This document shows positions 10,014-27,301 of a stretch of DNA of 64,000 bases, piece by piece; positions within the stretch are counted from its first letter, which is position 1, and each line of letters starts with the position of its first letter. Under the pieces are notes generated by a model. That model saw nothing but the letters and a program-made list of their open reading frames with translations, made no database searches and had not been told where the DNA came from. This stretch comes from an uncultured Planctomycetia bacterium (lineage in GTDB: Bacteria > Omnitrophota > Gorgyraeia > Duberdicusellales > 4484-171): positions 21,239 to 85,238 of the forward strand of contig CAYVYJ010000005.1 of NCBI GenBank assembly GCA_964455085.1, written 5' to 3'. A program made the position numbers and the translations under genes.

Positions 10014-10079
10014 CTGTTTAGGATTCGCCTAAACAGAGGAAGCCGGAAAGGAGCTGCTGTTTAGGCGAATCCTAAACAG
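10014..10079. repeat. Large inverted-repeat element. Its two 23-nt arms (ctgtttaggattcgcctaaacag and its reverse complement) are separated by a 20-nt spacer, and each arm is itself palindromic (tttagg-attcg-cctaaa).
   Basis: The architecture (arm, roughly 20-nt spacer beginning agg, arm) is the same as the element at 43089..43153. Confidence 0.6.
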
Positions 10080-11051: not shown

Positions 11052-11065
11052 AGGTTTCCCTCTTA

Positions 11066-12565
11066 TTAGAAATAAAGGTCACGGGCGCCCCGCTTAATCC
11101 GCTGATAATAACTTTTAAGCTTTGGGTAAATTTTTGGCATTGAAAACTTTATTGCCTCTAACTCATCTTTGATTACCTTCTCACCTTGCTTTTGAGTTTC
11201 CTCAGTAGCAAAATCATCCAGCCACTCTCTGAAGGTAAGTACCGCATTTAACTTACAAAGCTTTCCCTCTTCCCCGGTCTTTAAGAGTTCCATAATACAC
11301 TTGCCGGTTCTTCCGCAGCGGTAACCAGCCGTACAAAAAGAAGTAATATAGCCTAAAGAAGCTAACTCTCTTATTAGTTCGTCTAAACTGCGGGTATCAC
11401 CTAAGAAAAATTGCTGCCGCTGACCTTCCTGCTCAGCATAACAATCACTGTAAGCACCGATTCCAATCCGGGTCGAAGCATCAGTTTGAGTACAGCCTAA
11501 GGAAATAGTCTCTCTTCGTATTTGGGCACTTTCCCGGGCAGTAAGAATCATCCCGGCATGGGGTATAGCTAATCTGATAACTGTAATTAACTTTTTAAAA
11601 TCCTGATCACTAACTTTATAGCCTGACTCCTGGGTAAAGGGTGTATTAGCCGCTGGTTCAAGTCGCGGGAAAGAAATTGTATGGGGACCTACACCAAAAC
11701 GGTTCTCTAATTCCCGGGAATGCAGGAGAAGGCTTAAGACTTCGAACCGCCAATCGTAAAGACCGAAAAGAACACCAATACCGACATCATCGATTCCAGC
11801 CTCAAAGGCCCGATGCATACAATATAATCGCCACTGATAATCTGCCTTAAGCGTCCCTTGGGGATGAACTTCTTGGTAGGTCTGGGGATGATAAGTCTCC
11901 TGAAACACCTGATAAGTACCTATACCAGCCTGCTTAAGCTGCTTAAGATCTTCAGTTGATAAAGGCGCAGCATTAACATTAACCCGACGAATCTGGCCAT
12001 AGCCTTTTTTGGTCTTGGCCTTTACTCCATAAATTGTTTCAATAGTTGAAGCCATATAATCTATATCAGTCTGAGGATGTTCTCCGTAAACTACGATTAG
12101 ACGCTTATGTCCGATTTGACCAGCTAAAACCTCTGTCTCTCTTCTTACCTCATCCTGACTAAGGACTTTTCTCTGAACCTGTAAATTATCTCTTCTGAAC
12201 CCGCAGTAAAAACAATTATTTAGGCAAAGATTGCCGAGGTATAAAGGGGCAAAGGTAACAATTCGATTATCGTAGACCTTTTTTTTAACTTCTCCGGCAA
12301 CTTCGGCCATCTGGTCCCAAAGCTCTTTATCTTCAACTCTCAGCAAGGTTGCTGTCTGCTCCAAGGTCAGAGTCTGGATAGCTAAGGACTTAGCTAAGAT
12401 ATCCTTAACCTCTCCCTCTGAGACCTTTGATTTAGAGACTAAAGCCCGATTAATTGATTCCTGATCGATAAAGTGTCGACCCTGATTCAGGTATTTCTCT
12501 ATCTGAGCTGGTTTTATCTGCCTTTCGGCCCAGGAATCTAAACTAGTGGTCTTAATCTGCATCAA
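11066..12565 (-). CDS. hydG: [FeFe]-hydrogenase-type radical-SAM maturase HydG (tyrosine lyase family)
   Basis: 499 aa, longer than ThiH. The radical-SAM motif is CLNNCFYCGF. The C-terminal auxiliary-cluster region SFCTAGYRCGRTGKCIMELLKTGEEGKLCKLNAVLTFREWLDDFA resembles the HydG signature (CTAxYRxGRTG..FME...C.xNA). Confidence 0.8.
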   Translation of the reverse strand: MMQIKTTSLDSWAERQIKPAQIEKYLNQGRHFIDQESINRALVSKSKVSEGEVKDILAKSLAIQTLTLEQTATLLRVEDKELWDQMAEVAGEVKKKVYDNRIVTFAPLYLGNLCLNNCFYCGFRRDNLQVQRKVLSQDEVRRETEVLAGQIGHKRLIVVYGEHPQTDIDYMASTIETIYGVKAKTKKGYGQIRRVNVNAAPLSTEDLKQLKQAGIGTYQVFQETYHPQTYQEVHPQGTLKADYQWRLYCMHRAFEAGIDDVGIGVLFGLYDWRFEVLSLLLHSRELENRFGVGPHTISFPRLEPAANTPFTQESGYKVSDQDFKKLITVIRLAIPHAGMILTARESAQIRRETISLGCTQTDASTRIGIGAYSDCYAEQEGQRQQFFLGDTRSLDELIRELASLGYITSFCTAGYRCGRTGKCIMELLKTGEEGKLCKLNAVLTFREWLDDFATEETQKQGEKVIKDELEAIKFSMPKIYPKLKSYYQRIKRGARDLYF

Positions 12566-13221
12566 ATCACCCGATTTTTCTCCGCTCTTCGCTTAGTAAG
12601 AAAAATTAAGCTCTCCAGTTCCGAAGCCATATCCACATCCGATACCGATACAGTTTGAGGAACTTTCAGCACAATCGGTGCAAAATTTAAGATACCTTTT
12701 ATTCCTGATGAGACCAGTTCATCGGCAATCTTCTGAGCAACTTCCGGCGGTGTAGAAATTATGGCAATTTTAATATTTTCTTTTCTGATAATGCGCTGCA
12801 TCTGTTTTACATGGCTAATCTTTACCCCTTTCCTGGCTCTTCTAACTTTATCTTTGTCAATATCAAAGGCCAGAGTTATTTTAAGATTGAATTTGGAAAA
12901 CCCCTCAAAGCCTAAAAGAGCGCTTCCTAATCTTCCTATGCCTACTATAGCAATTCTCCGTTCTTGATCTAGGCCTAAGATAGTTTCAATCTCCTGGGCT
13001 AACCTTTCGACATTATAACCGACACCCCGCTTACCAAAACCACCAAAGAAAGAAAGATCCTTCCTGAACTGCGCCGGACTAACATTAAGAAATTTGGTCA
13101 GTTTAGCGGAAGATATAACATCAGTATTCTGAGCTTTTAACCGCTTTAAATTCCTCAGATAAATACTGAGACGCCTAATCGCCTCTAAGGAAAAATTATT
13201 TTTATTGTTTCGTTTCTTCAT
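12562..13221 (-). CDS. rex: Redox-sensing transcriptional repressor Rex
   Basis: It has an N-terminal wHTH and a C-terminal Rossmann motif IVGIGRLGSALL, and is 219 aa. Its stop overlaps the hydG start as ATGA, and its start overlaps the hydE end. Confidence 0.85.
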   Translation of the reverse strand: MKKRNNKNNFSLEAIRRLSIYLRNLKRLKAQNTDVISSAKLTKFLNVSPAQFRKDLSFFGGFGKRGVGYNVERLAQEIETILGLDQERRIAIVGIGRLGSALLGFEGFSKFNLKITLAFDIDKDKVRRARKGVKISHVKQMQRIIRKENIKIAIISTPPEVAQKIADELVSSGIKGILNFAPIVLKVPQTVSVSDVDMASELESLIFLTKRRAEKNRVI

Positions 13222-14533
13222 CGAGTAATTCCCTACTAACTCCTAAATCTGTAGGCGCCCGACCTAAAGATTTAAGCAAAGATATTGCTTCTTTAATCTG
13301 GATATTTATCAACTCCTTACTATGAGCCTTATTAGGATAAATTTCATAATGCTGGCGGTATTTAATCGGAGTAAGGTTAAGCATCAGGGAATTAGCGCCA
13401 GCTAACAACCCTTCTCTGCGGGCTGTAGGCATCACAGTCTCTAAGGCTGTAGTTATTAAAATCTTAGCTCTTTCTGGATCAATAAACCTTGCTAAAGCCA
13501 AGGTTTTTAAGACTAACTCTGGTGTAGGAGCCTTAAAGCTTCCCAAGGGGGATCTGGGATGGGGCAGGAAAGGTCCCAAGGAATACATCTCAGCTCCTAA
13601 GACTTTAGTCAAATAGATATCATTTATAATATCTTCGGCACTTTGGCCAGGTAGGCCAATAAGAGCCCCAGTCATAATCAAGTAGCCAATTTCAGCGGCT
13701 CGCCTAATATGGGCTAATCTGGTATCTAGTTTCTGTCCGGGATGAAGATCAGCATAAATTTTTGGATTAGAGGTTTCGAAACGCATAAGCATAGCTCTGG
13801 CTCCGGCCTGATAGAGAGTGTCTAGAGCCTCTAATCCTACTTCACCAAAACTGATACAGATTAACACCGCAACTCTTTCTTTAATTCTTCTGATAATTGA
13901 AGCTAATTCTTCAGCAGCCAAATAAGGATCCTCACCGCTCTGTAAGACCAAAGCCTGAAATCCATACTTCTCGACTGCCTCAGTAGCAGTATCAATTATT
14001 TCCTCAGGTCCCATCCGGTAACGCAGAAGTCCTTTATTATCGGCTGATATACCACAATAAGCGCATTGACGCTGGCAATGGTTAGAAATCTCGATTATCC
14101 CGTGAATACAGCAGGAATTTTTATGGTACTTCTGACGCAGGAAATTAGCTGATTTATAAATCAGCTTAAGCGATTGTTGATTATCTAAATTAATTAAGTA
14201 TAATAACTCCTCTTTTTTTAAAGAACGGTTTTCTAAAGCCTTGTCCAGGATAAGCCGTAGTTTCTTATCATCAACTCCTTTATCAAGATCCAGGCGCGAT
14301 AGCCGCAGATCAACATCCTGAAGTTGAAAGAAAAGTTCTTGCCAGGCTTCCAAGATTTCCTTTGCTTCATCTTCCTTAACCTTTTTTATCACAAATCCCC
14401 CCTGGGCACAGATATAATCCCCGCGATTAATATTATAAAACTCATTAATCGCTTTTTTTTCTTGGCCAAAGTAGTCAACAATGACTTGTTTACCTTTAAT
14501 ATCCTTTACCCTTCCGGGAATCGCATAACACAT
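13202..14533 (-). CDS. hydE: Fusion protein: N-terminal HypC/HupF-like domain of about 80 aa plus the radical-SAM maturase HydE
   Basis: The N-terminus MCYAIPGRVKDIKGKQVIVDYFG...GDYICAQGGFVIKKVKEDEAKEIL carries the HypC signature (MCxAIP, essential Cys2, VDFGG, GDYVLVHVGFA). Residues 140-443 align closely with HydE, through IIEISNHCQRQCAYCGISADNKGLLRYRM, VLQSGEDPY, RFETSNP and GLPGQ...GPFLPHP. Confidence 0.8.
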   Translation of the reverse strand: MCYAIPGRVKDIKGKQVIVDYFGQEKKAINEFYNINRGDYICAQGGFVIKKVKEDEAKEILEAWQELFFQLQDVDLRLSRLDLDKGVDDKKLRLILDKALENRSLKKEELLYLINLDNQQSLKLIYKSANFLRQKYHKNSCCIHGIIEISNHCQRQCAYCGISADNKGLLRYRMGPEEIIDTATEAVEKYGFQALVLQSGEDPYLAAEELASIIRRIKERVAVLICISFGEVGLEALDTLYQAGARAMLMRFETSNPKIYADLHPGQKLDTRLAHIRRAAEIGYLIMTGALIGLPGQSAEDIINDIYLTKVLGAEMYSLGPFLPHPRSPLGSFKAPTPELVLKTLALARFIDPERAKILITTALETVMPTARREGLLAGANSLMLNLTPIKYRQHYEIYPNKAHSKELINIQIKEAISLLKSLGRAPTDLGVSRELLDEETKQ

Positions 14534-14545
14534 CTTAGTTCTCCT

Positions 14546-14788
14546 CTATTCACAGTCAAATGCGACAACTTCAATTCTTAAACTAGGGAAGAAAATAATC
14601 TCCAGCTTTGCGTCTTTAAGAATAGTATTCTTAGCCAGTATGGCAAAGGTCTGGCGAAATGAATCTTCCTTAACGCCGGTAAGCTCTCCAATCTTAAGCT
14701 GAACCCGGGTTACGGTTTTTGCTCCTTCTTCTTCAGCATGTTTAGCTATCCCCTTGATGATCGGCACAATCAGATGAGTCTCATGCAT
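14546..14788 (-). CDS. hypA: HypA-like hydrogenase nickel-insertion protein, truncated to the N-terminal Ni-binding domain with no zinc finger
   Basis: It has the MHE N-terminus and a KIGELTGVKEDS core. The ORF ends ...AFDCE with a TAG stop exactly where the first CxxC of the HypA zinc site would begin. The hypC::hydE RBS and start follow 12 nt later. Confidence 0.65.
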   Translation of the reverse strand: MHETHLIVPIIKGIAKHAEEEGAKTVTRVQLKIGELTGVKEDSFRQTFAILAKNTILKDAKLEIIFFPSLRIEVVAFDCE

Positions 14789-15287
14789 TGGATGACTCCC
14801 TAATCAATCTTGCCACTTCCCCTAGGGTCTGCTTCAGGCTAGGTGAAAACTCAGACCCTAACTCGATTGTTTTCGGCTGAACCCCAAGCATATAAATACC
14901 AGCTTCAGTCTCCTTAGTTAAACATTCCATAAACATTGCCGGAGATATGTCATGGGTAGTAAATCCGCACTTTATGATATCATCTTTTTCTAAAATCTCA
15001 TACTCCCCGGGATCTCTTCCTAAATGCACGGCATCAATAATTAAAACTGTATCGGGTTTCTCTTTAATAATCTTACCGATATAATTCTCCGGTGCCGACC
15101 CAGCATCTAAACAAACTGCTTTAGTCTTCCCCTTTATCGCCTCAATAAGAACTGGTCCAAAACCATCGTCGCCGCGGATAATATTACCGATGCCGACAAT
15201 AACAACCTTTCCTTTGAGTATACTTTTCAATTTGTCTTTCATTGTGATTAAGTATTCAGAGTAGTTTCCCGACGGCATCTGGCGCAA
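14781..15287 (-). CDS. hycI: Hydrogenase maturation endopeptidase (HycI/HybD family)
   Basis: The motif VVIVGIGNIIRGDDGFGPVLIEAI is present and the length is 168 aa. Confidence 0.8.
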   Translation of the reverse strand: MRQMPSGNYSEYLITMKDKLKSILKGKVVIVGIGNIIRGDDGFGPVLIEAIKGKTKAVCLDAGSAPENYIGKIIKEKPDTVLIIDAVHLGRDPGEYEILEKDDIIKCGFTTHDISPAMFMECLTKETEAGIYMLGVQPKTIELGSEFSPSLKQTLGEVARLIRESSNA

Positions 15288-15856
15288 AGAATCTTTACCC
15301 GGTCAGAACGTCCCTGATCCTTTAGGACTGATATGATGTTCTCATCGACTATGCCCAGATTTTTTAGGCCGGCGAGATAAAGTGTGGGGCTGGAAAAACT
15401 GAGCTCACCAAGTCTCTGGTTAATCCAATTCAGGTGGTCAGAGCAAGCAATCGTCTCGCCGCAAATCTCACAAAGCTGCAGTTTCTTCTCGATCTGCTCT
15501 GAAGCTTCACTACGGTTAAAAAAGGAAAGTTCCCAATCACCGGATAACTTAATGCCCTGATTATCGGCAATACAAGCAGCTTGGCACTGGCCGCAGAATA
15601 TACAGGTATCAGTATAGTGAATCATAGCTCTGCGGGGGTTATCTTTATCATTAACGATATCAATATTACCAATTGCTTCTACCGGACAAACTTCTTTACA
15701 GGCCAGACAACCAACACATTTATCCTGATCAAATTTAGGTTGACCCCGAAAATTAGGATGAGCTTTGTGGGGCTCAATGGGAAACTTGGAAGTATAGGGA
15801 CCTTTTATAAGAGCTTTTATTGCTTCAATTAACTCTCTAATCTTGGGTAGTTTCAT
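15248..15856 (-). CDS. NuoI/HycF/MbhN-like 2x[4Fe-4S] subunit with an extra C-terminal Cys-rich tail
   Basis: Two cluster motifs are present, CVGCLACKEVCP and CIFCGQCQAAC. An additional CEICGETIACSDH...CARCRRE lies at the C-terminus. Confidence 0.75.
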   Translation of the reverse strand: MKLPKIRELIEAIKALIKGPYTSKFPIEPHKAHPNFRGQPKFDQDKCVGCLACKEVCPVEAIGNIDIVNDKDNPRRAMIHYTDTCIFCGQCQAACIADNQGIKLSGDWELSFFNRSEASEQIEKKLQLCEICGETIACSDHLNWINQRLGELSFSSPTLYLAGLKNLGIVDENIISVLKDQGRSDRVKILCARCRRETTLNT

Positions 15857-15889
15857 TCCACTTCTCGTTTATTTATAACTTACAACAGT

Positions 15890-16252
15890 TTAGGCCTCTC
15901 CCTCTTTATCTTCAAGATACTTATCAACAACACTCCTCTCCCAAAGTTTTACTCCCGACCGATGTGCGCCCCTGGCAATGGCATGGGCTGCAACCGGAGA
16001 AGTTAGTAGGAGAAAAATCATGCATAAGAGGGCTTTCATCCCGGCAGCTGTGGGACCAGCCACAAGAAAGGCCCCAAACAAAATACTACAGGTACCTAGA
16101 GTAACACACTTGGTAGCTGCCTGCAGACGGTTATAGACATCGGGAAGACGCACTAGGCCTAAGGCACCGATAAGATCAAAAACTAATCCTAAACTAATAA
16201 ATATTAAACCAAGAGAACTACTCATCAAAACTCCTTCCTTAAATGAGACCAC
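15890..16252 (-). CDS. mrpG: Mrp antiporter subunit G-like (MbhC-like)
   Basis: The MnhG-like sequence LIGALGLVRLPDVYNRLQAATK is present. The likely true start is MSSSLG at 16225, which follows AAGGAAGGAG. Confidence 0.7.
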   Translation of the reverse strand: MVSFKEGVLMSSSLGLIFISLGLVFDLIGALGLVRLPDVYNRLQAATKCVTLGTCSILFGAFLVAGPTAAGMKALLCMIFLLLTSPVAAHAIARGAHRSGVKLWERSVVDKYLEDKEGEA

Positions 16253-16340
16253 AATTTATGGAACGAAGTGAACATAAATTGTACGGTCGAATTTATCCTG
16301 AGCGAAGCGAAGGATCTTCTATTCATCAAAACTCCTTCCT
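16221..16340. repeat. 20-bp direct repeats (tcatcaaaactccttcctt) at 16221..16240 and 16321..16340 flank an 80-bp insert that contains a perfect 10-bp-stem hairpin at 16251..16282
   Basis: The repeated sequence encodes both the mrpF C-terminus plus stop and the mrpG RBS plus start. The insert forms the acaatttatg-N12-cataaattgt hairpin. Confidence 0.55.
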
Positions 16341-16705
16341 TCTAAATACTTGGAAAATGCTAAGGTGCTTATAAAACTCTGCAAGGCCCAGGCTATTCCA
16401 ATATCAATATACCAAGATCTCTTGGTAGAAATAGTCAACACTGCACATATTCCCACAACCATAATACCTAAAATATCAATAGCTACTATCCTATCAGCAC
16501 CAGTAGGCCCTTTACAAATACGATAAAGACAGAGAAGGCAAGCCAAAATAAGTATGTAGAGAGCGCGACCTAGGAAACCCAAATAAGGAAGGTCGGGACA
16601 AAAAAGGAAAGGAAGTGGCCGGATTATAATCATACCAACAATCCCGGTTAAAACAATTACTCCAATGAACCATGGCTTCTTTATCATCTTATCCCCTTTA
16701 ATCAA
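16319..16705 (-). CDS. mrpF: Mrp antiporter subunit F-like (MbhB-like)
   Basis: The MnhF-like core CLYRICKGPTGADRIVAIDILG is present. Confidence 0.7.
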   Translation of the reverse strand: MIKGDKMIKKPWFIGVIVLTGIVGMIIIRPLPFLFCPDLPYLGFLGRALYILILACLLCLYRICKGPTGADRIVAIDILGIMVVGICAVLTISTKRSWYIDIGIAWALQSFISTLAFSKYLEGRSFDE

Positions 16706-17195
16706 AAATTTTCTCTAATATTTTTTCAAAACGCTGGACAATGATTTCGGTCGCTTCTTGAACATCCTTTGCCTTCACATTAATCCAGTGTATATACAAA
16801 ATACCTTTATCGCGATCAATATCCACACTCATTGTACCGGGAGTTAAAGTTATTGAGTTAGCTAAGAATGTTAAAGCGGTATCGCTCTTTAAAGCTGTCT
16901 TTACTTTAACAATTCCCGGATTTATCGGTAGCTGTGGATGCAAGACTCGATAGGCAACGTCAATATTTGCTTTGATAACTTCCCACAAAAATACTGGCAA
17001 ATAATAGGCGAAGAAATATAGGTAACGTAAAGGATGTTTTAGCAGATGAGGCCGAGTGATAAATAAATCTCCGGTTAAAATAGTTACCAGAACAGCAACA
17101 AAAATTCCGGCTATAAGATGTTGAGTGTCCGGCACCCAACTTAGCAGGGACCAGATTACAAATGCTATTAAAAGTAAAACTACTCTGCTCTTCAT
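16698..17195 (-). CDS. mrpE: Mrp antiporter subunit E-like (MbhA-like)
   Basis: 165 aa with MnhE-like topology and size. It overlaps its neighbours, consistent with translational coupling. Confidence 0.6.
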   Translation of the reverse strand: MKSRVVLLLIAFVIWSLLSWVPDTQHLIAGIFVAVLVTILTGDLFITRPHLLKHPLRYLYFFAYYLPVFLWEVIKANIDVAYRVLHPQLPINPGIVKVKTALKSDTALTFLANSITLTPGTMSVDIDRDKGILYIHWINVKAKDVQEATEIIVQRFEKILEKIFD

Positions 17196-18700
17196 TGATT
17201 TATCTGGGTTAAAACTAAACTACTATATTTACTGCTTTCTAAAAGAACACCTGAGGCCGGCTGCAGAAAAACTTCTTTTACCCCGGAGGCAAACAAAACT
17301 CCTCCTAGCAAACAAATAAATGCTAATATTAGCATCGAGAGCTTCATCAACGCCGGTACTTCTTTCACTTGGCGCCACCTCTGGCTTAAGTTTCCAAAAA
17401 AAGCATATTTCATAACCTTAACATACATAGCTAAAGTTAATACACTAACTAAAACCAGCCAAAAAGCATACCCATAGTGACCAGCTTCTACGGTTGCCAG
17501 TATAATAAATAGCTTGCTCCAGAAACCACTAAAAGGGGGAACACCGGCGACAGACATAGAAGCAGTTAAATTAGTTAGGCAAGTTAAAGGCATCTTTTTT
17601 CCTAAACCGCCCATCTTTTGTAAATCCCGGGTTCCGGTAGCATATTCTACCGCTCCCGAATTTAGGAATAGAAGCGATTTAAATACTGAGTGATTAAAAA
17701 GATGAAAAAGTCCAGCTAATATACCTAAGGGTGTACCTAAGCCAATAGCCAGAACAATATAACCTACCTGGCTTATCGAGGAATAAGCCAAGAGTCGCTT
17801 AAAATCCCATTGTCCTAAAGCCAGTAATCCTCCGACCACCATAGATATTACCCCCAAGAACATTATTATTGAAGATAGTTCTCGGGTCATCCCTAATAGA
17901 TTATAGAATATTCTAATTAAAGCATAGATTCCCAGCGATTTTATCAATACTCCTGAAAGCATGGCTGATATTGGGGCCGGAGCTGAAGGATGAGCATCAG
18001 GCAACCAAGCATGAAAAGGAACCAGGGCAGCTTTAAGACCAAAACCCATTAAAAATAAAACGCTCACCAGAAGAACCAGGTTAGTAGCCGGTTCTTTAGC
18101 TAAAATAGCCCCCATATCAGCAATATTTAAAGTGGAAGTTAAGCCGTACAAAAGGGCAATGCCTAAAAGGATAAACAAAGACCCTACTGTACCCATAATC
18201 GCATATTTAAAAGCAGCTTCTAACTCATGACGTTCAGTTCCAAAAGCAACCAAAGCATAACTTGCCACCGAAGCAATTTCCAAAAATACAAAGAGATTAA
18301 ATATGTCGCCGGTAATAATCACTCCGTTCATTCCAGCCAACATTAAAAAAAAGAGTGAATAGAACTTCCACTTGGAAGTATACTTTTCCATATAATTTAT
18401 TGAATAGATTACGATGATGAATGCCACTAAATTTACAGTCACTAACATAAATGCAGTTAAACCATCCAAAACCAAGCCGATACCTACCGGTGGTTTCCAA
18501 TTTCCCACGCTATAGACAAGAATCCCCTGATTATTACGTAAGAAGACACTTAAAAAAGATAAAATACAGAGAACAAAAGCAGCTAAAACTCCTAATAGAT
18601 CCGGTGCTGGTTTTATTTTCTTTCCCAGAAGAGAAGTTAAAAAGGCTGCTCCCAAAGGTATAACTACAAATAATGGTATTATGTTAGCTGACGGATTCAT
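17192..18700 (-). CDS. Mrp subunit D / NuoM/N-like proton-pumping antiporter subunit
   Basis: 502 aa and polytopic. The NuoN/MrpD-family GGLAL...HAWLPDAH region is present. Confidence 0.8.
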   Translation of the reverse strand: MNPSANIIPLFVVIPLGAAFLTSLLGKKIKPAPDLLGVLAAFVLCILSFLSVFLRNNQGILVYSVGNWKPPVGIGLVLDGLTAFMLVTVNLVAFIIVIYSINYMEKYTSKWKFYSLFFLMLAGMNGVIITGDIFNLFVFLEIASVASYALVAFGTERHELEAAFKYAIMGTVGSLFILLGIALLYGLTSTLNIADMGAILAKEPATNLVLLVSVLFLMGFGLKAALVPFHAWLPDAHPSAPAPISAMLSGVLIKSLGIYALIRIFYNLLGMTRELSSIIMFLGVISMVVGGLLALGQWDFKRLLAYSSISQVGYIVLAIGLGTPLGILAGLFHLFNHSVFKSLLFLNSGAVEYATGTRDLQKMGGLGKKMPLTCLTNLTASMSVAGVPPFSGFWSKLFIILATVEAGHYGYAFWLVLVSVLTLAMYVKVMKYAFFGNLSQRWRQVKEVPALMKLSMLILAFICLLGGVLFASGVKEVFLQPASGVLLESSKYSSLVLTQINQ

Positions 18701-19041
18701 CCTCTTAACTCCCGAATTTTAGTAATATCAAAAGTACCATATTTCTCATATATCCTCATGGCAATAGCAACTAGTAAGGCAGTAGTAGCCAGACCAATAA
18801 CAATAGCCGTGAGCACCAAAGCATGGGGCAGGGGATCAACCATATTAGAGGCAGAAATATCTCCTTGGGGAGAAAATATCGGCGCTCTACCTTTGATACG
18901 ATAAGCTACCAAGATAAAAAACAAATTAGCGGCATACTCAGATATGATCACCCCGACAATAATCTTAATTATATTACGCTTCCTTAAAATACAATAAAGA
19001 CCGACACAAAAAAGCCCTAAACAAAGTAAATATACAATCAT
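18697..19041 (-). CDS. Mrp subunit C / NuoK-like (MbhG-like)
   Basis: 114 aa with three TM helices; similar to MnhC. Confidence 0.7.
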   Translation of the reverse strand: MIVYLLCLGLFCVGLYCILRKRNIIKIIVGVIISEYAANLFFILVAYRIKGRAPIFSPQGDISASNMVDPLPHALVLTAIVIGLATTALLVAIAMRIYEKYGTFDITKIRELRG

Positions 19042-19541
19042 TCTTTCTTCTCCGGTTCTAGCTTTAACAAAACTAAAGCAACGAATATTGCAAAAAGCCC
19101 GGCGCCGACCTTAAGGCATATCGCTATATTACAAAGAGGGATTATGCCGGCCGAGAATAAACTAAAAACTTTGCCCTTAGCTATGAAATTTAAGAAAAAA
19201 TAACCCCCAGTAAATCCAAGCAGAGCTATGGTCAAAAATAATAAGGCACCGGTGCTTTCAAAAAACGAGACTGCTTTCTTTGGTAAACGCTTAAAAACTA
19301 CCTCTTTACCGTAAGCAAGCATAAGATGAATAAAAGAAAGAGCAATAATAACCCCTCCAGCAAACCCTCCTCCCGGTGATAGATGACCATGGGTAACTAT
19401 ATAAATACCATAAAGAAGTATTAACCCCACCGTAAGACGAGTAATTGTTTTAACAATAACTGACATGCCTTTTTCGTGTTCTCTACTCATCTTCTTCCTC
19501 TGGCGCCTCCCCCGGTCTCCTCCTGCCGATTCTGCGCACAA
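19038..19541 (-). CDS. MnhB-domain membrane subunit (MbhE/F-like)
   Basis: The MnhB motif HLSPGGGFAGG is present. The true start is probably the internal MSVIVK near 19466; the N-terminal 25 aa of the track ORF overlap the upstream gene. Confidence 0.6.
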   Translation of the reverse strand: MCAESAGGDRGRRQRKKMSREHEKGMSVIVKTITRLTVGLILLYGIYIVTHGHLSPGGGFAGGVIIALSFIHLMLAYGKEVVFKRLPKKAVSFFESTGALLFLTIALLGFTGGYFFLNFIAKGKVFSLFSAGIIPLCNIAICLKVGAGLFAIFVALVLLKLEPEKKE

Positions 19542-20031
19542 TAGCTAAAACACCAATTACAGCAGTGAACAATATCGTAGCCTCCCCCAGGGTATCATAA
19601 GCTCTAAAATCCAATATCACTGAAGAAACAACATTAGCTGCCCCGGTTTGAGATAAGCCTTGGTTAAGATAAGCTCTTGCAACCTTCATAACGGGATATC
19701 CGAATTCCGGCAATTCCCTTAAAGCTTTGACCGATATAAACAAAAATACAGCAATAAAAGCTGTAACGATAAAAGTGTTCAGTAACCATCTCCCGGTTGT
19801 TGAAAAAGGAATATCTTTTCTCAAAGTAGCTCTAATCAAAATAATCAAACACAATATCTCAACAACCAGCTGGGTAATGGCTACATCCGGTGCTTTAAGT
19901 ATTAAAAAGACTATGGAAAGCCCTAAACCTACAGCTCCCACAGCTATTACTGAGGAAAGAAGATCCTTTAACTCAGTGGCAACAATTGCCCCAACAATCA
20001 TAAATATTAGTAAAATATATAACTCAAACAT
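19483..20031 (-). CDS. MrpB-like subunit (DUF4040 plus MnhB domain; MbhD/E-like)
   Basis: The MnhB domain VVSSVILDFRAYDTLGEATILFTAV is present. Confidence 0.65.
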   Translation of the reverse strand: MFELYILLIFMIVGAIVATELKDLLSSVIAVGAVGLGLSIVFLILKAPDVAITQLVVEILCLIILIRATLRKDIPFSTTGRWLLNTFIVTAFIAVFLFISVKALRELPEFGYPVMKVARAYLNQGLSQTGAANVVSSVILDFRAYDTLGEATILFTAVIGVLAIVRRIGRRRPGEAPEEEDE

Positions 20032-20034
20032 TGT

Positions 20035-21690
20035 TTAGCCCCGTAAAATGTAAAAAATCATTATCATAGCTAAAAGACACCAAGCCAAATATGTAGGAAG
20101 TACGCCATTGTGAACGTAACGTAATATCCTGATAAAAACAAAAGTTACCCTTCTGCTTAAATCGTAAAGATCGAAAACTTTTTTCTCAGCTAATTTATAA
20201 ATGGCCTTTAAAATCCCTATTTCCTGGATTGTATTGTAAAACTCAGTTCCTGAAACCCGCATATCTAGGTGTCTTCTTAAATCCTCACCGCCTACAAAGC
20301 CTGCTGTTTCCCTTATTTTGGCAGCTTTGCCTAAAAGATAGATTACCATCCCAATTGCAATTCCCACAATTATTAATAACGTGGCTAAGCTTACGTTCCA
20401 GATACCAAGAAATTCTACCCCGCCCCCTAAACTGGGGAAAATAAACATCTTAAGCGGAATCTGATAGGCAAAAACTCCAAAAATAACACAGAGTGAGGCT
20501 AAGAAGACTTGAGGAAACCACATATTTGGTCCAACATCCTTTAGGACTTTACCAGCGATCCCTGACTCTGAAGACGGCTGGCCTAAAAATACAGCATGGA
20601 TTAATTTCATAAAACTAGCTAAAGTAAGGGCGCTACCAAACATAGCCGCGGTTAGCCAAATTACCCATAGGTATCCTCCGCTCTTGGCGGTTTCAATTAT
20701 GCCCTGATAAATCATCCACTTAGAAGCAAATCCATTAAAAGGTGGTACTCCTGATATAGCTAAGGACGCTAACAAGAAGGCTCCAAAAGTAATCGGCATA
20801 ACTTTAGCCAAACCACCTAATTTTTCTAAATCACTTGTTCCAGCTTTCTTTTCTACCGCCCCACCGCCCAAAAAGAGACAAGATTTATAAATAGTATTAT
20901 TGAGCATATGAAACAGGCCCCCAGCAATACCCAAGAGACTGCCGGTACCAATACCCAAAACCATATACCCCACCTGACTTACGGCATGATAACCTAAGAG
21001 TCGTTTTAGGTCATGTTGAATTAAGGCCATCATAACTGCCGCCACAATAGTAATACTACCTACCAGCATTAAAAAAGTATTCATACCTTTATCCATCTGA
21101 AAAATATTTAAAGACAATCTGACTAAGAAGTAAATACCCAGAAGCTTATCTAGAGAAGCTGGCAGAAAGGCAGCCACCGGAGTCGGCGCATCTTCGGCGG
21201 TATCAGGCACCCAGGTATGAAAAGGCATAGCGCCAGCTTTAGCAAAAGCACCGGCAGCCAGACAAAGATAAGCCCAGACAGCTATCTTACTATCTAAAGC
21301 AATGTTTAACGTATCCATCTGCGCTACTCCTGATAGCTTCCAAACCAAGGCTAAACCCAAAAGCATAAAAGCGTCAGTGCCACCGATTATTATAAAAGCC
21401 TTTTTTGCCGTAGCCGGAGTCTTATCGCTCTTACCAAAACTGATTAAAAGGTATAAGAGTAAACCTAAGAAACCCCAGAAGACCATAAACAAAATAAGAT
21501 TGTTAGAAAAGACAGCACCTAAGGAAACAATAAAGGTAAGCACTATATATAGGTAATAACGAAACAGTCCTTTGCTTCCACGCATAAAGCCTAATGAGTA
21601 GCTAACCGTAAGGATAGTGAATATCCCGATAAATATACCTACAAAACCGGAAAGTTTATCGATCTTAAATAACTCGCCTGCTAAGTTCAT
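20035..21690 (-). CDS. MrpA/D / NuoL-like antiporter subunit (MbhH-like)
   Basis: 551 aa and polytopic. The NuoL/MrpD-family core (HTWVPDTAEDAPTPV) is present. Confidence 0.8.
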   Translation of the reverse strand: MNLAGELFKIDKLSGFVGIFIGIFTILTVSYSLGFMRGSKGLFRYYLYIVLTFIVSLGAVFSNNLILFMVFWGFLGLLLYLLISFGKSDKTPATAKKAFIIIGGTDAFMLLGLALVWKLSGVAQMDTLNIALDSKIAVWAYLCLAAGAFAKAGAMPFHTWVPDTAEDAPTPVAAFLPASLDKLLGIYFLVRLSLNIFQMDKGMNTFLMLVGSITIVAAVMMALIQHDLKRLLGYHAVSQVGYMVLGIGTGSLLGIAGGLFHMLNNTIYKSCLFLGGGAVEKKAGTSDLEKLGGLAKVMPITFGAFLLASLAISGVPPFNGFASKWMIYQGIIETAKSGGYLWVIWLTAAMFGSALTLASFMKLIHAVFLGQPSSESGIAGKVLKDVGPNMWFPQVFLASLCVIFGVFAYQIPLKMFIFPSLGGGVEFLGIWNVSLATLLIIVGIAIGMVIYLLGKAAKIRETAGFVGGEDLRRHLDMRVSGTEFYNTIQEIGILKAIYKLAEKKVFDLYDLSRRVTFVFIRILRYVHNGVLPTYLAWCLLAMIMIFYILRG

Positions 21691-22871
21691 TTAATACCCA
21701 ATTTACTTTTTATCTTTGCGGTCTTCTCCTGAGAGAGCCGGATTAAGTCTTCTCCGCCATAGAGCTTCTTACCCCTGGTATCACGCACAGCCATCCTTTC
21801 GGTACAACAATAGCAAGGATCAATAGCGGCAAAAATTATCGTAGCATCAGCTATAGTCTGGCCAACAACAGTTGATTTATAAGTTGGTAGATTCATAAAG
21901 GTTGGTGCCCGTATCTTATGGCGAGCCGGCCGGTTAGTGCCGTCACTGACCAGATAATGAAAACACTCTCCTCGGGGAGCCTCAATCTGGCCGATTCCTT
22001 CTCCGGGAGGAATACTTTTAATATTCGCGTCAATATCACCTCCAGGCAGATTTAGGAGACAGTGTTTTATTATCTTTACTGACTCAAAAGTCTCTAAAAT
22101 CCTTACTACAGCTTTATCAAAAACATCACCGTTTGAGGTCACGATCATCTTCCAATCAACTTGATCATAAGCTCCGTAAGGGCAATCTTTTCTTAAGTCT
22201 TTGGCTACTCCTGAGGCCCGGGAAGTTGGCCCGAGAGCTGAATAATCTATGGCTTCTTCTTTAGTGAGAACACCGACCCTCTTGGTTCGGGCATGCAGGA
22301 CCGGATCGTCAATAACTGCCTTTTTAAGCATTGTCAATGTCGGTATAATTGAATCGATTTTCTTAATAACCCCGGGGATATCACTGGATTTTATATCTCT
22401 TCTTACCCCTCCTGGTTTAAACATAGCGTAATTATTTCTATTACCCGCTAAAACCTCCATTGCATCCAAGATCTCTTCTCTTAACTTCCAGGCCCACATA
22501 TAAACAGTATTGTAGCCTAAGAAGTGACCGGCTAAACCCAACCACAAAAGATGTGAGTGTATTCTCTCGCCCTCAGCAATTATGGTCCGAATATACTTAG
22601 CCCGCGGTGGTACTTCTATCGGTATCACATCCTCAACGGCCCGGGTATAAGCAAAAGGGTGACTGGTAGAGCAAATACCGCAGATTCTTTCGACAACAAA
22701 AGTAGATTGGTCAAAGGTCTTCATCTCAGAGAGTTTTTCAATACCCCGGTGATTATAACCAACCTCGACATCAACCCCTACGATTTTCTCACCTTCTACA
22801 GTAAGAGTGAAAAACTCCGGTTCTTCCTGCAGGGGATGATAAGGCCCTATCGGTACTATTGTTCTAGCCAT
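21687..22871 (-). CDS. [NiFe] hydrogenase large subunit, group 4 (NuoD-like; MbhL/EchE/HycE-type)
   Basis: Both metal-binding motifs are present: N-terminal RICGICSTSH (RxCGxCxxxH) and C-terminal DPCYCCTER (DPCxxCxxR, the group-4 variant). The length is 394 aa. Confidence 0.85.
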   Translation of the reverse strand: MARTIVPIGPYHPLQEEPEFFTLTVEGEKIVGVDVEVGYNHRGIEKLSEMKTFDQSTFVVERICGICSTSHPFAYTRAVEDVIPIEVPPRAKYIRTIIAEGERIHSHLLWLGLAGHFLGYNTVYMWAWKLREEILDAMEVLAGNRNNYAMFKPGGVRRDIKSSDIPGVIKKIDSIIPTLTMLKKAVIDDPVLHARTKRVGVLTKEEAIDYSALGPTSRASGVAKDLRKDCPYGAYDQVDWKMIVTSNGDVFDKAVVRILETFESVKIIKHCLLNLPGGDIDANIKSIPPGEGIGQIEAPRGECFHYLVSDGTNRPARHKIRAPTFMNLPTYKSTVVGQTIADATIIFAAIDPCYCCTERMAVRDTRGKKLYGGEDLIRLSQEKTAKIKSKLGIK

Positions 22872-23344
22872 TACACTCCTCTATCCCTAATTGCATTCTT
22901 ATCCCACTCTTGATAATCCCGACGCAAAGGATACACGCCTTCCGGCCAATCATCAGGCAAAAGCAGCCTTTTTAAGTCCGGATGACCCTTAAATTTTATC
23001 CCTAACATCTCGTAAATTTCTCGTTCAATCCAATTAGCAGCTTTAAATATCGGAGCAAGAGAAGCAATTTCCAGTTTACTTTTATCAAGTTTTATTCGTA
23101 AAGAAAGTACGAAATTCATAGCATCAAAGGTAAAGTGATAGAGAATCTCCATGTGCGAACGGGCATCTAGACCCGAGGCGATGCTAAACCTGGCTCCTAA
23201 GTCTTTAAAGGTATAGCTGGCTATTTTAGTTAAAGCAGCAGGTTTAATCTCCAGATATACCCGTTTAGAAGATTTATCGTTAAGCTCAATAATATCTTCC
23301 TTAAATCTTTGGCTTATGTTCTTTAAAACCGCGTCTTTATCCAT
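22871..23344 (-). CDS. NuoC-like subunit (MbhK/HycE N-domain-like)
   Basis: 157 aa, belonging to the 30-kDa-subunit family. Confidence 0.7.
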   Translation of the reverse strand: MDKDAVLKNISQRFKEDIIELNDKSSKRVYLEIKPAALTKIASYTFKDLGARFSIASGLDARSHMEILYHFTFDAMNFVLSLRIKLDKSKLEIASLAPIFKAANWIEREIYEMLGIKFKGHPDLKRLLLPDDWPEGVYPLRRDYQEWDKNAIRDRGV

Positions 23345-23784
23345 TATTTACCCTTTTCTTCAATCGTGCTTTCAACCTTTCCGATCAGCTTAACTACACC
23401 GGCAATAATTGCTTCTGGTTTAGGTGGACAACCAGGGATGTAAACATCAACAGGAATAATCTTATCCACCGGAACCGGACAATTATAACTGTGAATGAAC
23501 ATCCCCCGGGACAAAGAGCACTCTCCGATTGCCACCACCAGACAAGGCTTAGGTATCTGCTCATATAACCTCTTCACCCTCTCCATTGACTTTCGGTTAG
23601 CTGAACCAGTAACTAAAAGAACGTCAGCGTGTCTTATGCTCCCGGCTAAAATCATTCCAAATCTTTCAATATCAAACCGGGGAGTAAGACAATCCAATAT
23701 CTCAATATCACAATTATTACAGCTTCCAGTAGCAAGATGGAAGACCCAAGGTGATTTTAATAGTGCTTTTAATTTTAGGCTCAT
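23344..23784 (-). CDS. [NiFe] hydrogenase small subunit, group 4 (NuoB-like; MbhJ/HycG)
   Basis: The four cluster cysteines are present: ATGSCNNCDIE, GECSLSRGMF and YIPGCPPKPEAI. Confidence 0.8.
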   Translation of the reverse strand: MSLKLKALLKSPWVFHLATGSCNNCDIEILDCLTPRFDIERFGMILAGSIRHADVLLVTGSANRKSMERVKRLYEQIPKPCLVVAIGECSLSRGMFIHSYNCPVPVDKIIPVDVYIPGCPPKPEAIIAGVVKLIGKVESTIEEKGK

Positions 23785-23785
23785 T

Positions 23786-24709
23786 TTACTTTCCGTTTAA
23801 GGCTAAAATCACCGCTAACCCAGCAATTATAGTCATTGGACCCCAAAAGAACCGCATTGCTTGACCAATTTTTACCCGCGGGTTAGTATTTCTAATAACT
23901 GTTATCAGTGCTACTAATCCCAGGTACTTTAAGGCTCCCAGAATTAAACCTATCCCAGTGAATTTTAAACCGCCCATAAGAAGAATCATTATGAAAAAAG
24001 GTAAGACAAATAAAAGCATATTTTTAGTAAGTCGATAGAGGGCTAAGGCGGTACCGGAATACTCGATTAAAGGTCCGCCGATTATCTCGGTCTCAGCCTC
24101 TGGGATATCAAAAGGGACTAAAGCTAACTTTGCCTGCATACAAATTATAAGAACAATAAACGCCAATACCCCGGATAGATTCCCCAAGATTACTCCCTGT
24201 TGAGCTTGAAAAGTTATAATCTGGCCTAAACTTAAAGAATAATTGGATTTTATAACCGGGACTAATATTGCTAAAACAAAGGGAAGCTCATAGCTTAAGA
24301 TCAGCTTCATCTCCCGCGATGCCCCGATACTTGCTAAGGGATTACGCGAAGCAAAACCACCCAGAATAATGCTCATCGAAGGGATGGTTAATAAATACAA
24401 TACTACAATCAAATCTCCCAAAAAGCTCTTATCCGGCCAAATATTGTTTAACCAAAGAAGAGTCGATACTAAAATTACACTGGCAAAACCAATAACTGGA
24501 GCAATTAAAAAAGTTAACTTTGACGAACCAACCGGTACCAGAGTCTCCTTACCAAGAAGTTTTACGATATCGATCAATGGCTGCAACAGAGGCGGACCAA
24601 CTCGATATTGAATCCGGGCAGTGACCTTCCGGTCGACCCAACTAGCTAAAAGCCCGATAATGACCGTTGATGCAAACCCCAGCACTATAAAATAAAATAA
24701 GTAGATCAT
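23786..24709 (-). CDS. NuoH/HycD/MbhM-like membrane subunit
   Basis: 307 aa. The N-terminal NuoH-family motif is RKVTARIQYRVGPP. Confidence 0.8.
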   Translation of the reverse strand: MIYLFYFIVLGFASTVIIGLLASWVDRKVTARIQYRVGPPLLQPLIDIVKLLGKETLVPVGSSKLTFLIAPVIGFASVILVSTLLWLNNIWPDKSFLGDLIVVLYLLTIPSMSIILGGFASRNPLASIGASREMKLILSYELPFVLAILVPVIKSNYSLSLGQIITFQAQQGVILGNLSGVLAFIVLIICMQAKLALVPFDIPEAETEIIGGPLIEYSGTALALYRLTKNMLLFVLPFFIMILLMGGLKFTGIGLILGALKYLGLVALITVIRNTNPRVKIGQAMRFFWGPMTIIAGLAVILALNGK

Positions 24710-25272
24710 GCTTTTTCTCTATCCCAGTGGGTTGAATGGACAATTAGATTCTCTCCCACTAAGAAGGTATTTGAATCAAGCTCAACGTCGCCTGGTTTTA
24801 AACTTAAGGCACCGTAGCTGCAAGTCTTTATACATAAAGGTTCCTGGTCAAGATCCCTGCGATCTAAACAAAAGTCACAATTATGGATTAAGTAAGGGAC
24901 GTTTTCAGGATATATCGATCCATAAGGACAGGCATGAGAACAGGATTTACAACTTACACAACGCATATTATGCCGGATGAGAAGCTTATCTTTATCTTGC
25001 TGTTGTTCTAAGGCTTCAAAGGGACAGGCTCCGACACAATGCGGTTCTTCGCAGCGGCGGCAGACTAAAGCATAGGTGGCTAGCTCAGCTACCGAGATAA
25101 TACCGTTGTTGCCGGGATCTTGAGGATGATAAAAATAACTGCACTCAATCAAACAATCCTTACATTGGCCAGAAGCGCAGACGTCCAGATCAATAAATAG
25201 CCGCCTGTCTCTTCCTCTCCCAGCTTTTAAATTTAATTTACCTTGGTGTAGTTGTTCAGCGCTTGAGCTCAT
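24706..25272 (-). CDS. HycB/HydN-like polyferredoxin (multiple 4Fe-4S motifs)
   Basis: 16 cysteines arranged as CxxCxxCxxxCP-type repeats (CRRCEEPHCVGACP, CVSCKSCSHACP, CDFC...CIKTCSYGAL). Confidence 0.7.
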   Translation of the reverse strand: MSSSAEQLHQGKLNLKAGRGRDRRLFIDLDVCASGQCKDCLIECSYFYHPQDPGNNGIISVAELATYALVCRRCEEPHCVGACPFEALEQQQDKDKLLIRHNMRCVSCKSCSHACPYGSIYPENVPYLIHNCDFCLDRRDLDQEPLCIKTCSYGALSLKPGDVELDSNTFLVGENLIVHSTHWDREKA

Positions 25273-25273
25273 T

Positions 25274-26098
25274 TTAGTCCCAAATTTCGTGAAAATCTTT
25301 TATCTTATCGTAAGTAAAGACCGGACCGTCTTTGCAAGCATAGTAAGTCCCAATCCGGCAATGCCCGCACTTACCAATACCACAAGACATGTTCTTCTCC
25401 ATTGAAAGGTAAATATTCTCATCCTTAAACCCTGATTCCAAGAGCTTAAAAGTAACGAATTTCATCATTATCGGCGGTCCGCAAACCACAGCAACTCCTC
25501 TTTCACAGTCCATGGCTAAACCATCCAGAATTGTGGTTACCAGTCCCACATGGCCCTTCCACTTCTCATCACCCTTATCTACGGTAAGCCTTAAATCTAA
25601 ATCGTCTCGCTTTGCCCAATCGCTGACTTCACGCTTATAAACCAACTCCTGAGGGTTTCGACAACCACCTCGAAACAATAGTTTTTTAATTTCCCCTCTT
25701 ATTGTAAAAAGAGTATAGATAAGACTGCGTAAAGGAGCAAAACCAACCCCACCACCAATAACCAAAACTTCCCGGTCTTTAAACTTATCCAGTGGGTAAC
25801 CCAGACCTAAGGGACCTCTTACTCCGATAGAGGTGCCTTTCTTAAGTTCATGAATCTTATCGGTAACCTTACCAACCTTCATTACAGTTATTTCCATCGT
25901 ATCCTTTACTGATGGCTTTGAAGAGGGAGTAAAAGGGGCTTCTCCTACGCCAGGGATAGTCACTTCGATGAATTGACCAGTAGAAAAGCTTAGCGCTTCT
26001 TTAGGTTTAAATTTTATAGTCTTTATGGTCGGTGTCTCATCAATAACCTCAAGAACCTTAGCTTCGATCGAACGATAAGGATTTTTACATTTAGACAT
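25274..26098 (-). CDS. AsrB/PyrK/sulfhydrogenase-gamma-like FAD/NAD(P)-binding oxidoreductase with a C-terminal 2Fe-2S
   Basis: It has an FNR-like fold with the motif VIGGGVGFAPL and a terminal CGIGKCGHCRIG...CKDGPVF. Confidence 0.75.
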   Translation of the reverse strand: MSKCKNPYRSIEAKVLEVIDETPTIKTIKFKPKEALSFSTGQFIEVTIPGVGEAPFTPSSKPSVKDTMEITVMKVGKVTDKIHELKKGTSIGVRGPLGLGYPLDKFKDREVLVIGGGVGFAPLRSLIYTLFTIRGEIKKLLFRGGCRNPQELVYKREVSDWAKRDDLDLRLTVDKGDEKWKGHVGLVTTILDGLAMDCERGVAVVCGPPIMMKFVTFKLLESGFKDENIYLSMEKNMSCGIGKCGHCRIGTYYACKDGPVFTYDKIKDFHEIWD

Positions 26099-27131
26099 CG
26101 GATACCAATTTATTTAATACTTTTCTAATATCGATCTTTGCCGGACAAGCCGAAATACAGCGGCCGCAACCAGTACAAGCATAAATGCCGGCAACTTTGG
26201 GAAAAAAATCAAATTTTTTCTCAAATCTGTTCCGCAACCGCATCCAGAGCTTCTCCCGGGGATTAGCTCCTCCGGCAACCCGGGCAAAATCTTTTATCAT
26301 ACATGAATCCCAGATTCGCAGCCGAGCCATACGCTGTTGATCTTTTTGGTCATAAAGAAGAAAACAGTGACAAGTAGGACATATGGTATTACAAGCTCCA
26401 CACTCAAGGCAAGTTTTAGCCTCATCAGCCCAGATACTAGAATCATATTTCTTTTCAATAATGCCCTCAAAAGCCTCTTGGTTGGATAAACTATTATCTT
26501 TAATATTTTTATCGACCATATTTTTAATTGCAAGCCGCTGTTGGTCTCTCTGGGCAATAAGCTGGCTACTACCAGCTTCAAAGAATGAAGAATTTTTAGC
26601 TATGAGCTCACGGCCCTTTTCGGAACCAGATTCGATAATAAAACCACCTTTGACTTCTGAAAGATTAAGGTCAAAATCACCTTGAGGATAAGGCATCAAA
26701 CCTAAAGCCAGACAAAAACAAGTATCAATTACACAAGTGCAATCTGCGGCAATAATAAGGTTCCTCTTCCGGGCGGTAAAGTAGAAAGGATCTTGACACT
26801 CCTGCTCATCTCCTGAAGAAGCGGAAAATACGTAATCTTGAACCTTAAAGCCTTTTAAATCGCAAGCCTTAGCTCCGACAATCGCTAACGGCTTGCCCTT
26901 AGTTTGAGGAAGCTGGTCCTTAAAATCTTCAGCTACTACTTCTCGAGCCCGGTAAAAGAATGATTTTAAAGGCTCATAAGCCCTTACTTCTCCGATAGTG
27001 ATATCCGCATCAGAACCCTCATATTTTTTATAGAAACGCTGCTGACCCTTTTTTATCGGCAGATAGACAGAATAGTCTTGGCTTAAATTATCTAAAAACT
27101 TAGCAAAATTACCTAAGGAGATATAATTCAT
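26091..27131 (-). CDS. AsrA/sulfhydrogenase-beta-like FeS subunit
   Basis: CLECGACNTICPTCHC and CTGCGRCISACP are present. The length is 346 aa and the cysteine spacing matches AsrA. Confidence 0.7.
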   Translation of the reverse strand: MNYISLGNFAKFLDNLSQDYSVYLPIKKGQQRFYKKYEGSDADITIGEVRAYEPLKSFFYRAREVVAEDFKDQLPQTKGKPLAIVGAKACDLKGFKVQDYVFSASSGDEQECQDPFYFTARKRNLIIAADCTCVIDTCFCLALGLMPYPQGDFDLNLSEVKGGFIIESGSEKGRELIAKNSSFFEAGSSQLIAQRDQQRLAIKNMVDKNIKDNSLSNQEAFEGIIEKKYDSSIWADEAKTCLECGACNTICPTCHCFLLYDQKDQQRMARLRIWDSCMIKDFARVAGGANPREKLWMRLRNRFEKKFDFFPKVAGIYACTGCGRCISACPAKIDIRKVLNKLVSDV

Positions 27132-27189
27132 CCTAATTAAATTTTAAATTGTTAATAGTGGAAAGCTTCTCAAGAAAAACCATATTACT

Positions 27190-27207
27190 TTGTGAATAAA
27201 ATCACAA
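27190..27207. promoter_or_regulatory. Predicted Rex operator TTGTGAATAAAATCACAA in the promoter region of the hydrogenase operon
   Basis: 17 of 18 positions match the TTGTGAA-N4-TTCACAA Rex consensus. It lies 59 bp upstream of the asrA-like start in an AT-rich 170-bp intergenic region, and rex is encoded in the same operon. Confidence 0.65.
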
Positions 27208-27301
27208 TCGTAATAAATAATCGTACCATACAAGAATAAGCTTGTCAAACAATTTTTATTAATTAATCAAGCTGACTACTAAAAATATACAGATTGGGGA
27301 T

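Follow-up and report, generated by a model that had tools for sequence, protein, structure and literature searches.

The 64-kb window (i.e. the entire stretch of DNA analysed here) contains an unbroken array of minus-strand genes located 3′ of an AT-rich intergenic region, which encodes a hydrogenase with a membrane module, several maturation proteins and the redox-sensing repressor Rex (Table 1). Junctions between consecutive genes range from −59 to +66 nt, and this tight arrangement, together with the lack of terminator enrichment, points to a single operon of 16–17 kb in which 21–22 genes would be carried on one transcript. Across the full 64 kb, all family-matched ORFs of at least 100 aa were found on the minus strand, and the GC skew was uniformly negative; besides the hydrogenase operon, these minus-strand genes include ribosomal protein, SecY, RpoA, TCA-type, lipid A and LPS core genes.

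Table 1. Position, strand and description of the features at the hydrogenase locus (all positions are those of the window)
Feature	Position	Strand	Description or basis
ORF of 103 aa	27302..27613	−	between heptosyltransferase genes and hydrogenase promoter
Operon promoter and leader region	27132..27301	−	170 bp, 25% GC (window 40.5%)
−35 hexamer TTGACA, predicted	27248..27243	−	10/12 match, 17-nt spacer; TTGACAA invariant in relatives
Extended −10 TGgTACGAT, predicted	27228..27220	−	TG-N-TA..AT kept in relatives
Rex operator (ROP), predicted	27190..27207	−	consensus match, conservation, family-wide enrichment
Genes 1–2	25274..27131	−	AsrA/ShyB-like Fe–S protein (Fer4_22); AsrB/ShyC-like FAD/NAD(P)-binding Fe–S protein
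Hydrogenase core and Mrp-type membrane module	15248..25272	−	genes 3–16
Genes 3–7			Fer4_11 ferredoxin, NuoH-like, NuoB-like (small subunit), NuoC-like, NuoD-like large subunit
Large subunit	21687..22871	−	394 aa, NuoD-like, Pfam PF00346 and PF00374
Genes 8–16			two NuoL/M/N-like, MbhD/E, MnhB, NuoK-like, MnhE/F/G, NuoI-like ferredoxin; complete Mrp-type module
Maturation genes 17–19	13202..15287	−	HycI-type endopeptidase, HypA, HypC::HydE-like fusion
HypA	14546..14788	−	
HypC::HydE-like fusion	13202..14533	−	
rex (gene 20), redox-sensing repressor	12562..13221	−	219 aa; NCBIfam, Pfam, T-Rex alignment
Gene 21, HydG-type radical SAM enzyme	11066..12565	−	last conserved operon gene
Aldo-keto reductase (gene 22?)	10086..11051	−	14 nt after HydG
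Hairpin copies (23 nt each)	10014..10036, 10057..10079		3′ of aldo-keto reductase gene

The deduced products of the first two genes contain FAD_binding_6, NAD_binding_1 and Fe–S domains, and are regarded as a putative NAD(P)H module of the AsrAB type. In the large subunit, both pairs of cysteine ligands of the Ni–Fe site are retained (RICGICSTSH and DPCYCCTER), which identifies the predicted enzyme as a true energy-converting, Mrp-linked group 4 [NiFe] hydrogenase. The best homologues of the gene 1 product, of Rex and of the HypC::HydE-like fusion protein were all encoded by Candidatus Omnitrophota metagenome-assembled genomes (MAGs).

At the 3′ end of the array, the aldo-keto reductase gene may be co-transcribed with the operon; the related operon L167 ends after the HydG-type gene. 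Two copies of a 23-nt hairpin (CTGTTTAGG-N5-CCTAAACAG), 43 bp apart and devoid of a T-tract, are located in the 89-bp gap 3′ of the aldo-keto reductase gene, and could either be REP-like or mark the 3′ terminus of the operon transcript.

Rex and the neighbouring maturation genes

The deduced Rex protein was shown to exceed the cutoffs of three NCBIfam models, i.e. NF003995 (255 bits; cutoff 126), NF003993 (232.7 bits; cutoff 217) and NF003992 (228.3 bits; cutoff 226), and to encompass a winged-helix domain (PF06971, 54.8 bits) as well as a Rossmann NAD(H) domain (PF02629, 75.1 bits). Comparison with Thermus Rex (T-Rex) returned an E-value of 9e-46 for 1XCB, with both 1XCB and 3IKT being matched over the full length at ~1e-45. 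Sequence alignment revealed that the recognition helix (FRKDLSFFG in the window Rex; VRKDLSYFG in T-Rex), the wing (GKRGVGY; GTRGVGY), the glycine motif of the Rossmann fold (GIGRLGSAL; GMGRLGSAL) and the region of the acidic residue after β2 (FDID; FDVD) are closely similar, while a further motif, GIKGILNFAP, is identical in both proteins. Judged from its deduced sequence, the window protein is a canonical Rex. Two basic residues of helix α3 and a wing arginine make base-specific contacts in Rex of Streptococcus agalactiae (PMC8376106), and, since the basic helix and wing residues are kept in the window Rex, canonical operator specificity is expected.

The rex gene overlaps its 5′ neighbour by 20 nt and its 3′ neighbour by 4 nt. 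These overlaps, together with the short junctions that extend back to gene 1, support the proposal in the preliminary description that rex is encoded inside the hydrogenase operon, on the same strand and 14 kb downstream of the operator, and the AsrB-like NAD(P)H module named there is likewise recovered as the AsrA/AsrB-like FAD/NAD(P)-binding module of the first two genes.

The most unusual feature in the vicinity is not the operator, but the conserved HypC::HydE-like fusion and the HydG-type enzyme, the genes of which flank rex at the tail of the [NiFe] hydrogenase operon. The fusion protein (443 aa) combines a HypC domain (MCYAIPG N-terminus, PF01455) with a HydE-like radical SAM domain, which carries the radical SAM motif CQRQCAYC (CX3CX2C) and scores 245 bits with TIGR03956, just below the cutoff of 254.6. 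Both domains were found together in 118 of the 120 best protein clusters, most of which were from Omnitrophota and the names of which were inconsistent, and this fusion is consequently widespread. The HydG-type enzyme scores 454 bits with TIGR03955 and carries CTAGYRC as its C-terminal cluster motif, the usual motif of HydG at this place being CxxC. Genes for HydA, HydF and HypD/E/F are absent within the 64 kb, and no mention of a HypC::HydE fusion was found in the literature searched. It is conceivable, although rather unlikely, that the fusion protein and the HydG-type enzyme provide a radical-SAM route that delivers an Fe-CO/CN unit to a HypC carrier, and that hydrogenase, non-canonical maturation and NADH sensor constitute a single self-regulating cassette that was disseminated among Omnitrophota and adjacent phyla.

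Promoter region and predicted Rex operator

The preliminary description had assigned a near-consensus Rex box to an AT-rich, 170-bp gap 5′ of the first gene, and this assignment is upheld by the present analysis. The gap is far poorer in GC than the window (Table 1), and the palindrome TTGTGAATAAAATCACAA, as read on the plus strand, is situated within it. In the direction of transcription (minus strand) the palindrome reads TTGTGATTTTATTCACAA, and its single mismatch to the consensus TTGTGAA-N4-TTCACAA is an A-to-T change at position 7, corresponding to agreement at 13 of the 14 specified positions, or at 17 of 18 when the four N positions are counted. The palindrome represents the sole match with at most one mismatch in the 64-kb window, while the chance expectation for such a match, derived from dinucleotide-preserving shuffles, was 0.02 per 64 kb (two of 100 shuffles contained any). 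Matches with two mismatches were not encountered in the window, and those with three mismatches numbered four, which corresponds to the chance level. For the remaining intergenic gaps of the window, including those associated with the Ldh/Mdh-like gene, the acyl-CoA dehydrogenase gene and the other window genes, the best Rex-like site was no better than five mismatches.

Two weaker candidates, each with three mismatches, were discarded. The first, a possible second Rex site within the same gap (27156..27173, TAGTGGAAAGCTTCTCAA), has Rex half-sites that are not kept in relatives, and the second, a palindrome at 48937 (TTTTGAATAAAATCATAA), lies within a T2SSE ATPase gene and was treated as a chance occurrence.

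Upstream of the box, TTGACA and TGgTACGAT, separated by 17 nt, form the only 10/12 match with an extended −10 (TG) on the minus strand in the 19 kb from 8000 to 27400. The −35 candidate named earlier (ttgtca at ~27243) was placed correctly but read on the wrong strand, the element being TTGACA on the minus strand. The operator begins 12 nt after the −10 hexamer and ends 58 nt 5′ of the ATG (27131) of the first gene. Transcription is predicted to start near 27211..27214, ~7 nt after the −10 hexamer, and the operator would then occupy about +6 to +23, a repressing position directly 3′ of the best sigma-70-like promoter. LPS-core glycosyltransferase genes are located 5′ of the gap and, because no terminator-like site between these upstream genes and the operon was found in the gap, read-through from the glycosyltransferase genes into the operon may occur. 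The 103-aa ORF immediately upstream of the gap (Table 1) does not match any Pfam family, and an ORF of the same length is present in the relative L082, which is 89% identical.

For comparison, seven distinct promoters of related operons were aligned (L082, L083, L085, L171, L086 and L087/L170), the AsrA-like proteins of which are 68–89% identical. Three blocks were shown to be invariant (alignments A3 and A4), i.e. TTGACAA, TG-N-TA..AT and (A/T)TTGTGAT..TATTCACAAAGT, in an alignment with a mean column identity of 67% and flanks that drift. The sequence 5′ of the −35 hexamer is unrelated between lineages, and the upstream neighbours vary among relatives (glycosyltransferase, CbiM and TatC genes) whereas the promoter is kept. 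The gap between the −10 hexamer and the box is 12 nt in the group to which the window belongs and 2 nt in L087/L170, a difference of exactly 10 bp, i.e. one helical turn. Such a pattern of conservation is what would be expected if the promoter contains an operator to which a protein binds.

The gene order HycI, HypA, HypC::HydE, Rex and HydG was also observed in L166 (from the population of L085) and L167 (on the contig of L170), while in L082 and L083 the gene for the Rex homologue shares a contig with the operon. Three lineages that retain the box keep rex at the tail. Individual lineages also display features of their own. The otherwise collinear operon of L083 contains two inserted genes 3′ of the large-subunit gene, one with a PhoU domain and one additional NuoL-like gene (6432..7034). 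In L085 (7105..9801) and L171 (395..1312), NikR_C, OprB-porin and CbiM genes precede the hydrogenase promoter, suggestive of nickel regulation and uptake, such that nickel supply genes adjoin the [NiFe] operon in the L085/L171 lineage and not in the window.

Rex-type boxes in related operons and alternative readings of the palindrome

Genome and metagenome collections were scanned with an alignment of gene 1, which yielded 160 further loci, of which 135 were usable. The operon was found in MAGs labelled Omnitrophota, Planctomycetia/Phycisphaerae/Pirellulales, Atribacterota, Spirochaetota, Nitrospirota, Fermentibacteria and others, and is also present in Desulfosarcina variabilis. Within the 135 loci, boxes with at most two mismatches numbered 37 in 40.4 kb of regulatory zones, as opposed to 13 in the residual 1.69 Mb; of the latter, eight were situated between gene 1 and a rex gene located 5′ of it (rex–asrA spacer). 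The rex gene is positioned directly 5′ of gene 1 in 43 of the 135 loci, and a box with at most two mismatches was associated with 31 of these 43 compared with 12 of the 92 loci without an adjacent rex. The density of boxes was ~120-fold higher in regulatory zones (~300-fold when the rex–asrA spacer is moved to the regulatory side), and the association between box and adjacent rex gave a Fisher p of 1.6e-11, but both the enrichment and the Fisher figures are inflated and overstate the number of independent events, as the compared loci are phylogenetically non-independent. The pattern of box and operon nevertheless spans several phylum labels.

An inverted-repeat count that made no reference to Rex, and that covered all 5-nt repeats with spacers of 2–10 nt, ranked TTGTG-N8-CACAA (34 loci) first in the regulatory zones, followed by TGTGA-N6-TCACA (24 loci), while neither repeat occurred in size-matched coding controls.

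In loci in which rex comes first, a Rex box is present immediately 3′ of a TTGACA-17-TAnAnT promoter. These rex-first relatives (L003, L014, L016, L017, L020, L026, L134 and others) were observed to carry two boxes exactly 21 bp apart, start to start, and in many rex-first Omnitrophota loci the second box directly precedes the rex start codon. Because the boxes leave almost no leader before this codon, the rex mRNA of such loci may be leaderless or possess a very short leader. The window operon carries one box, and rex-first relatives usually two. Among the 12 box-bearing loci without an adjacent rex, at least five carry rex at the operon tail, as is the case in the window. Placement of rex within the operon under its control, as had been proposed for the window, is consequently a conserved feature with two alternative locations (head or tail). 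Approximately three-quarters of those orthologous operons that lack an adjacent rex are devoid of a Rex-type box, indicative of a lineage-specific mode of control.

Based on consensus match, conservation and recurrence, the palindrome at 27190..27207 very probably functions as an operator for the product of the rex gene, which is located 14 kb further downstream as part of the same transcription unit. Three other readings were considered.

TGTGA-N6-TCACA, which ranked second in the inverted-repeat count, corresponds to the classical arrangement of CRP half-sites and overlaps the Rex consensus, and the box, which can be read as T-TGTGA-ATAAAA-TCACA-A, fully contains this CRP/FNR core. Recognition by a member of the CRP/FNR family instead of Rex is nevertheless improbable, as the conserved block extends past the core to TTGTGA...TCACAA with invariant outer T/A pairs, and as variants found in relatives (TTGTGAA..GGCACAA and TTGTTAA..TTAACAA) keep the Rex-type outer positions while breaking TCACA. 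Furthermore, the motif travels with rex (31/43 rex-first loci versus 12/92 others), the window was not found to contain any gene of the CRP family, and the site would be centred at ~+14, which is a position for a repressor and not for a class I or class II activator.

The box would be transcribed if transcription starts near 27213, and the leader can fold it as a 6-bp stem with five further pairs, so that the inverted repeat might instead act as an RNA hairpin that affects stability or translation. This reading is very improbable: the leader fold has a z-score of −1.57 and 15 of 200 shuffles fold as well, the five extra pairs are lost in relatives (alignment A4), and no Rfam match was obtained. 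The half-sites display strict identity without compensatory changes, as expected for protein contacts, and, in L087/L170 as well as in loci headed by rex, there is an overlap between box and predicted start, so that part of the box would be missing from the transcript. Short palindromes are common in DNA of 25% GC such as this gap, yet a functionless chance palindrome is very unlikely and the least credible of the readings, given the 0.02 matches expected in the whole window, the invariance of the box among relatives despite a diverged spacer and the ~120-fold (~300-fold including the rex–asrA spacer) higher density of Rex-type boxes before the same operon in other genomes relative to the rest of those loci.

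Proposed regulation and comparison with known systems

With the palindrome taken as a Rex operator, a regulatory circuit can be proposed, for which the attachment of Rex, its response to NADH and the direction of catalysis are all predicted. The autoregulatory loop responsive to NADH/NAD+ that was put forward in the preliminary description is supported in those parts that are accessible to sequence analysis. The sigma-70-type promoter (TTGACA, 17 nt, TGgTACGAT) would drive the 16–17 kb minus-strand operon, the products of which would comprise the Mrp-linked group 4 [NiFe] hydrogenase, the AsrAB-like NAD(P)H/FAD module, maturation proteins, Rex, and the HydE- and HydG-type radical SAM enzymes. 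At a low NADH/NAD+ ratio, a Rex dimer would occupy the box and block initiation or promoter escape. Accumulation of NADH would release Rex from the DNA and allow synthesis of the hydrogenase, which could then discharge reducing equivalents in the form of H2 and pump ions at the same time. Because rex is carried on the derepressed transcript, the level of Rex would rise together with that of the enzyme, resulting in negative autoregulation and quick re-repression when NADH falls. Given the presence of the AsrAB-like module, it is plausible that the enzyme consumes NAD(P)H-derived electrons, which would close the feedback loop.

This reading provides a testable rule for an uncultured phylum, as synthesis of the Mrp-linked [NiFe] hydrogenase of Omnitrophota is predicted to follow the NADH/NAD+ ratio, and Rex control would support a role as a redox valve, operating through the NAD(P)H-type module, over that of a constitutive enzyme. 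Rex and its operator appear to be repeatedly tied to this hydrogenase family, in Omnitrophota, in MAGs labelled Planctomycetota/Phycisphaerae, in Atribacterota and in others, which would extend the range of Rex regulons, hitherto mostly Firmicutes and Actinobacteria. The prediction may be of use for the reading of metatranscriptomes and for heterologous expression, and does not change any concept.

The rex-hemACD operon of Streptomyces coelicolor, for which Brekasis and Paget reportedly described in 2003 a ROP and negative autoregulation responsive to NADH/NAD+, is similar to the window operon in that rex belongs to an operon with a Rex operator in its promoter. In S. coelicolor, however, rex is said to be the first gene and to be accompanied by genes for haem synthesis, whereas in the window rex is gene 20 of 21–22 and a redox-relieving enzyme is encoded.

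Both the TTGTGAA-N4-TTCACAA consensus and repression that is relieved by NADH are textbook properties of Rex, as presented in PMC8376106 and PMC6391272 (the latter quoting Ravcheev et al. 2012). Rex of Caldicellulosiruptor bescii was shown by EMSA to bind upstream of the [NiFe] Ech and [FeFe] hydrogenase genes, hydG and rex, and repression was proposed (PMC6391272). C. bescii and C. saccharolyticus thus resemble the window in the repressor family, the 18-bp consensus, and a group 4 [NiFe] hydrogenase, HydG and rex as targets (PMC6391272). In Caldicellulosiruptor, a Firmicute, these targets form separate transcription units with their own operators, whereas in the window, which is derived from an uncultured, Gram-negative-type member of the Omnitrophota, hydrogenase, maturases and rex apparently share a single operon and operator. 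Compared with Caldicellulosiruptor, the window enzyme additionally possesses a complete Mrp module as well as the NAD(P)H module of the AsrAB type, and the operator described here is a predicted one.

In Parageobacillus and relatives, a predicted Rex box is located 31–37 bp upstream of the Ni-CODH/ECH operon, and CODH/ECH expression follows the absence of electron acceptors (PMC13077300). The presence of a TTGTGAA-N4-TTCACAA box before the operon of an energy-converting group 4 hydrogenase is common to both systems, but in Parageobacillus rex is encoded elsewhere in the genome and CO dehydrogenase is the partner of the hydrogenase, as opposed to the NAD(P)H-type module in the window.

Group 4g Mrp-linked [NiFe] hydrogenases have been reported for Omnitrophota MAGs (PMC8542988 and PMC10066038), and the window enzyme, which is from the same phylum and is likewise predicted to be membrane-bound and Mrp-linked, may by analogy be likened to this subgroup; Rex, an operator and the HypC::HydE/HydG tail are absent from both papers. 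No paper linking Rex with Omnitrophota was found in the literature searched. In Firmicutes, both the control of hydrogenase genes by Rex and the autoregulation of rex have been described previously, while the novelty of the present system would lie in the phylum, in the packaging of enzyme, maturases and sensor into a single operon, and in the repeated association of rex with this family of hydrogenases in phyla of Gram-negative type.
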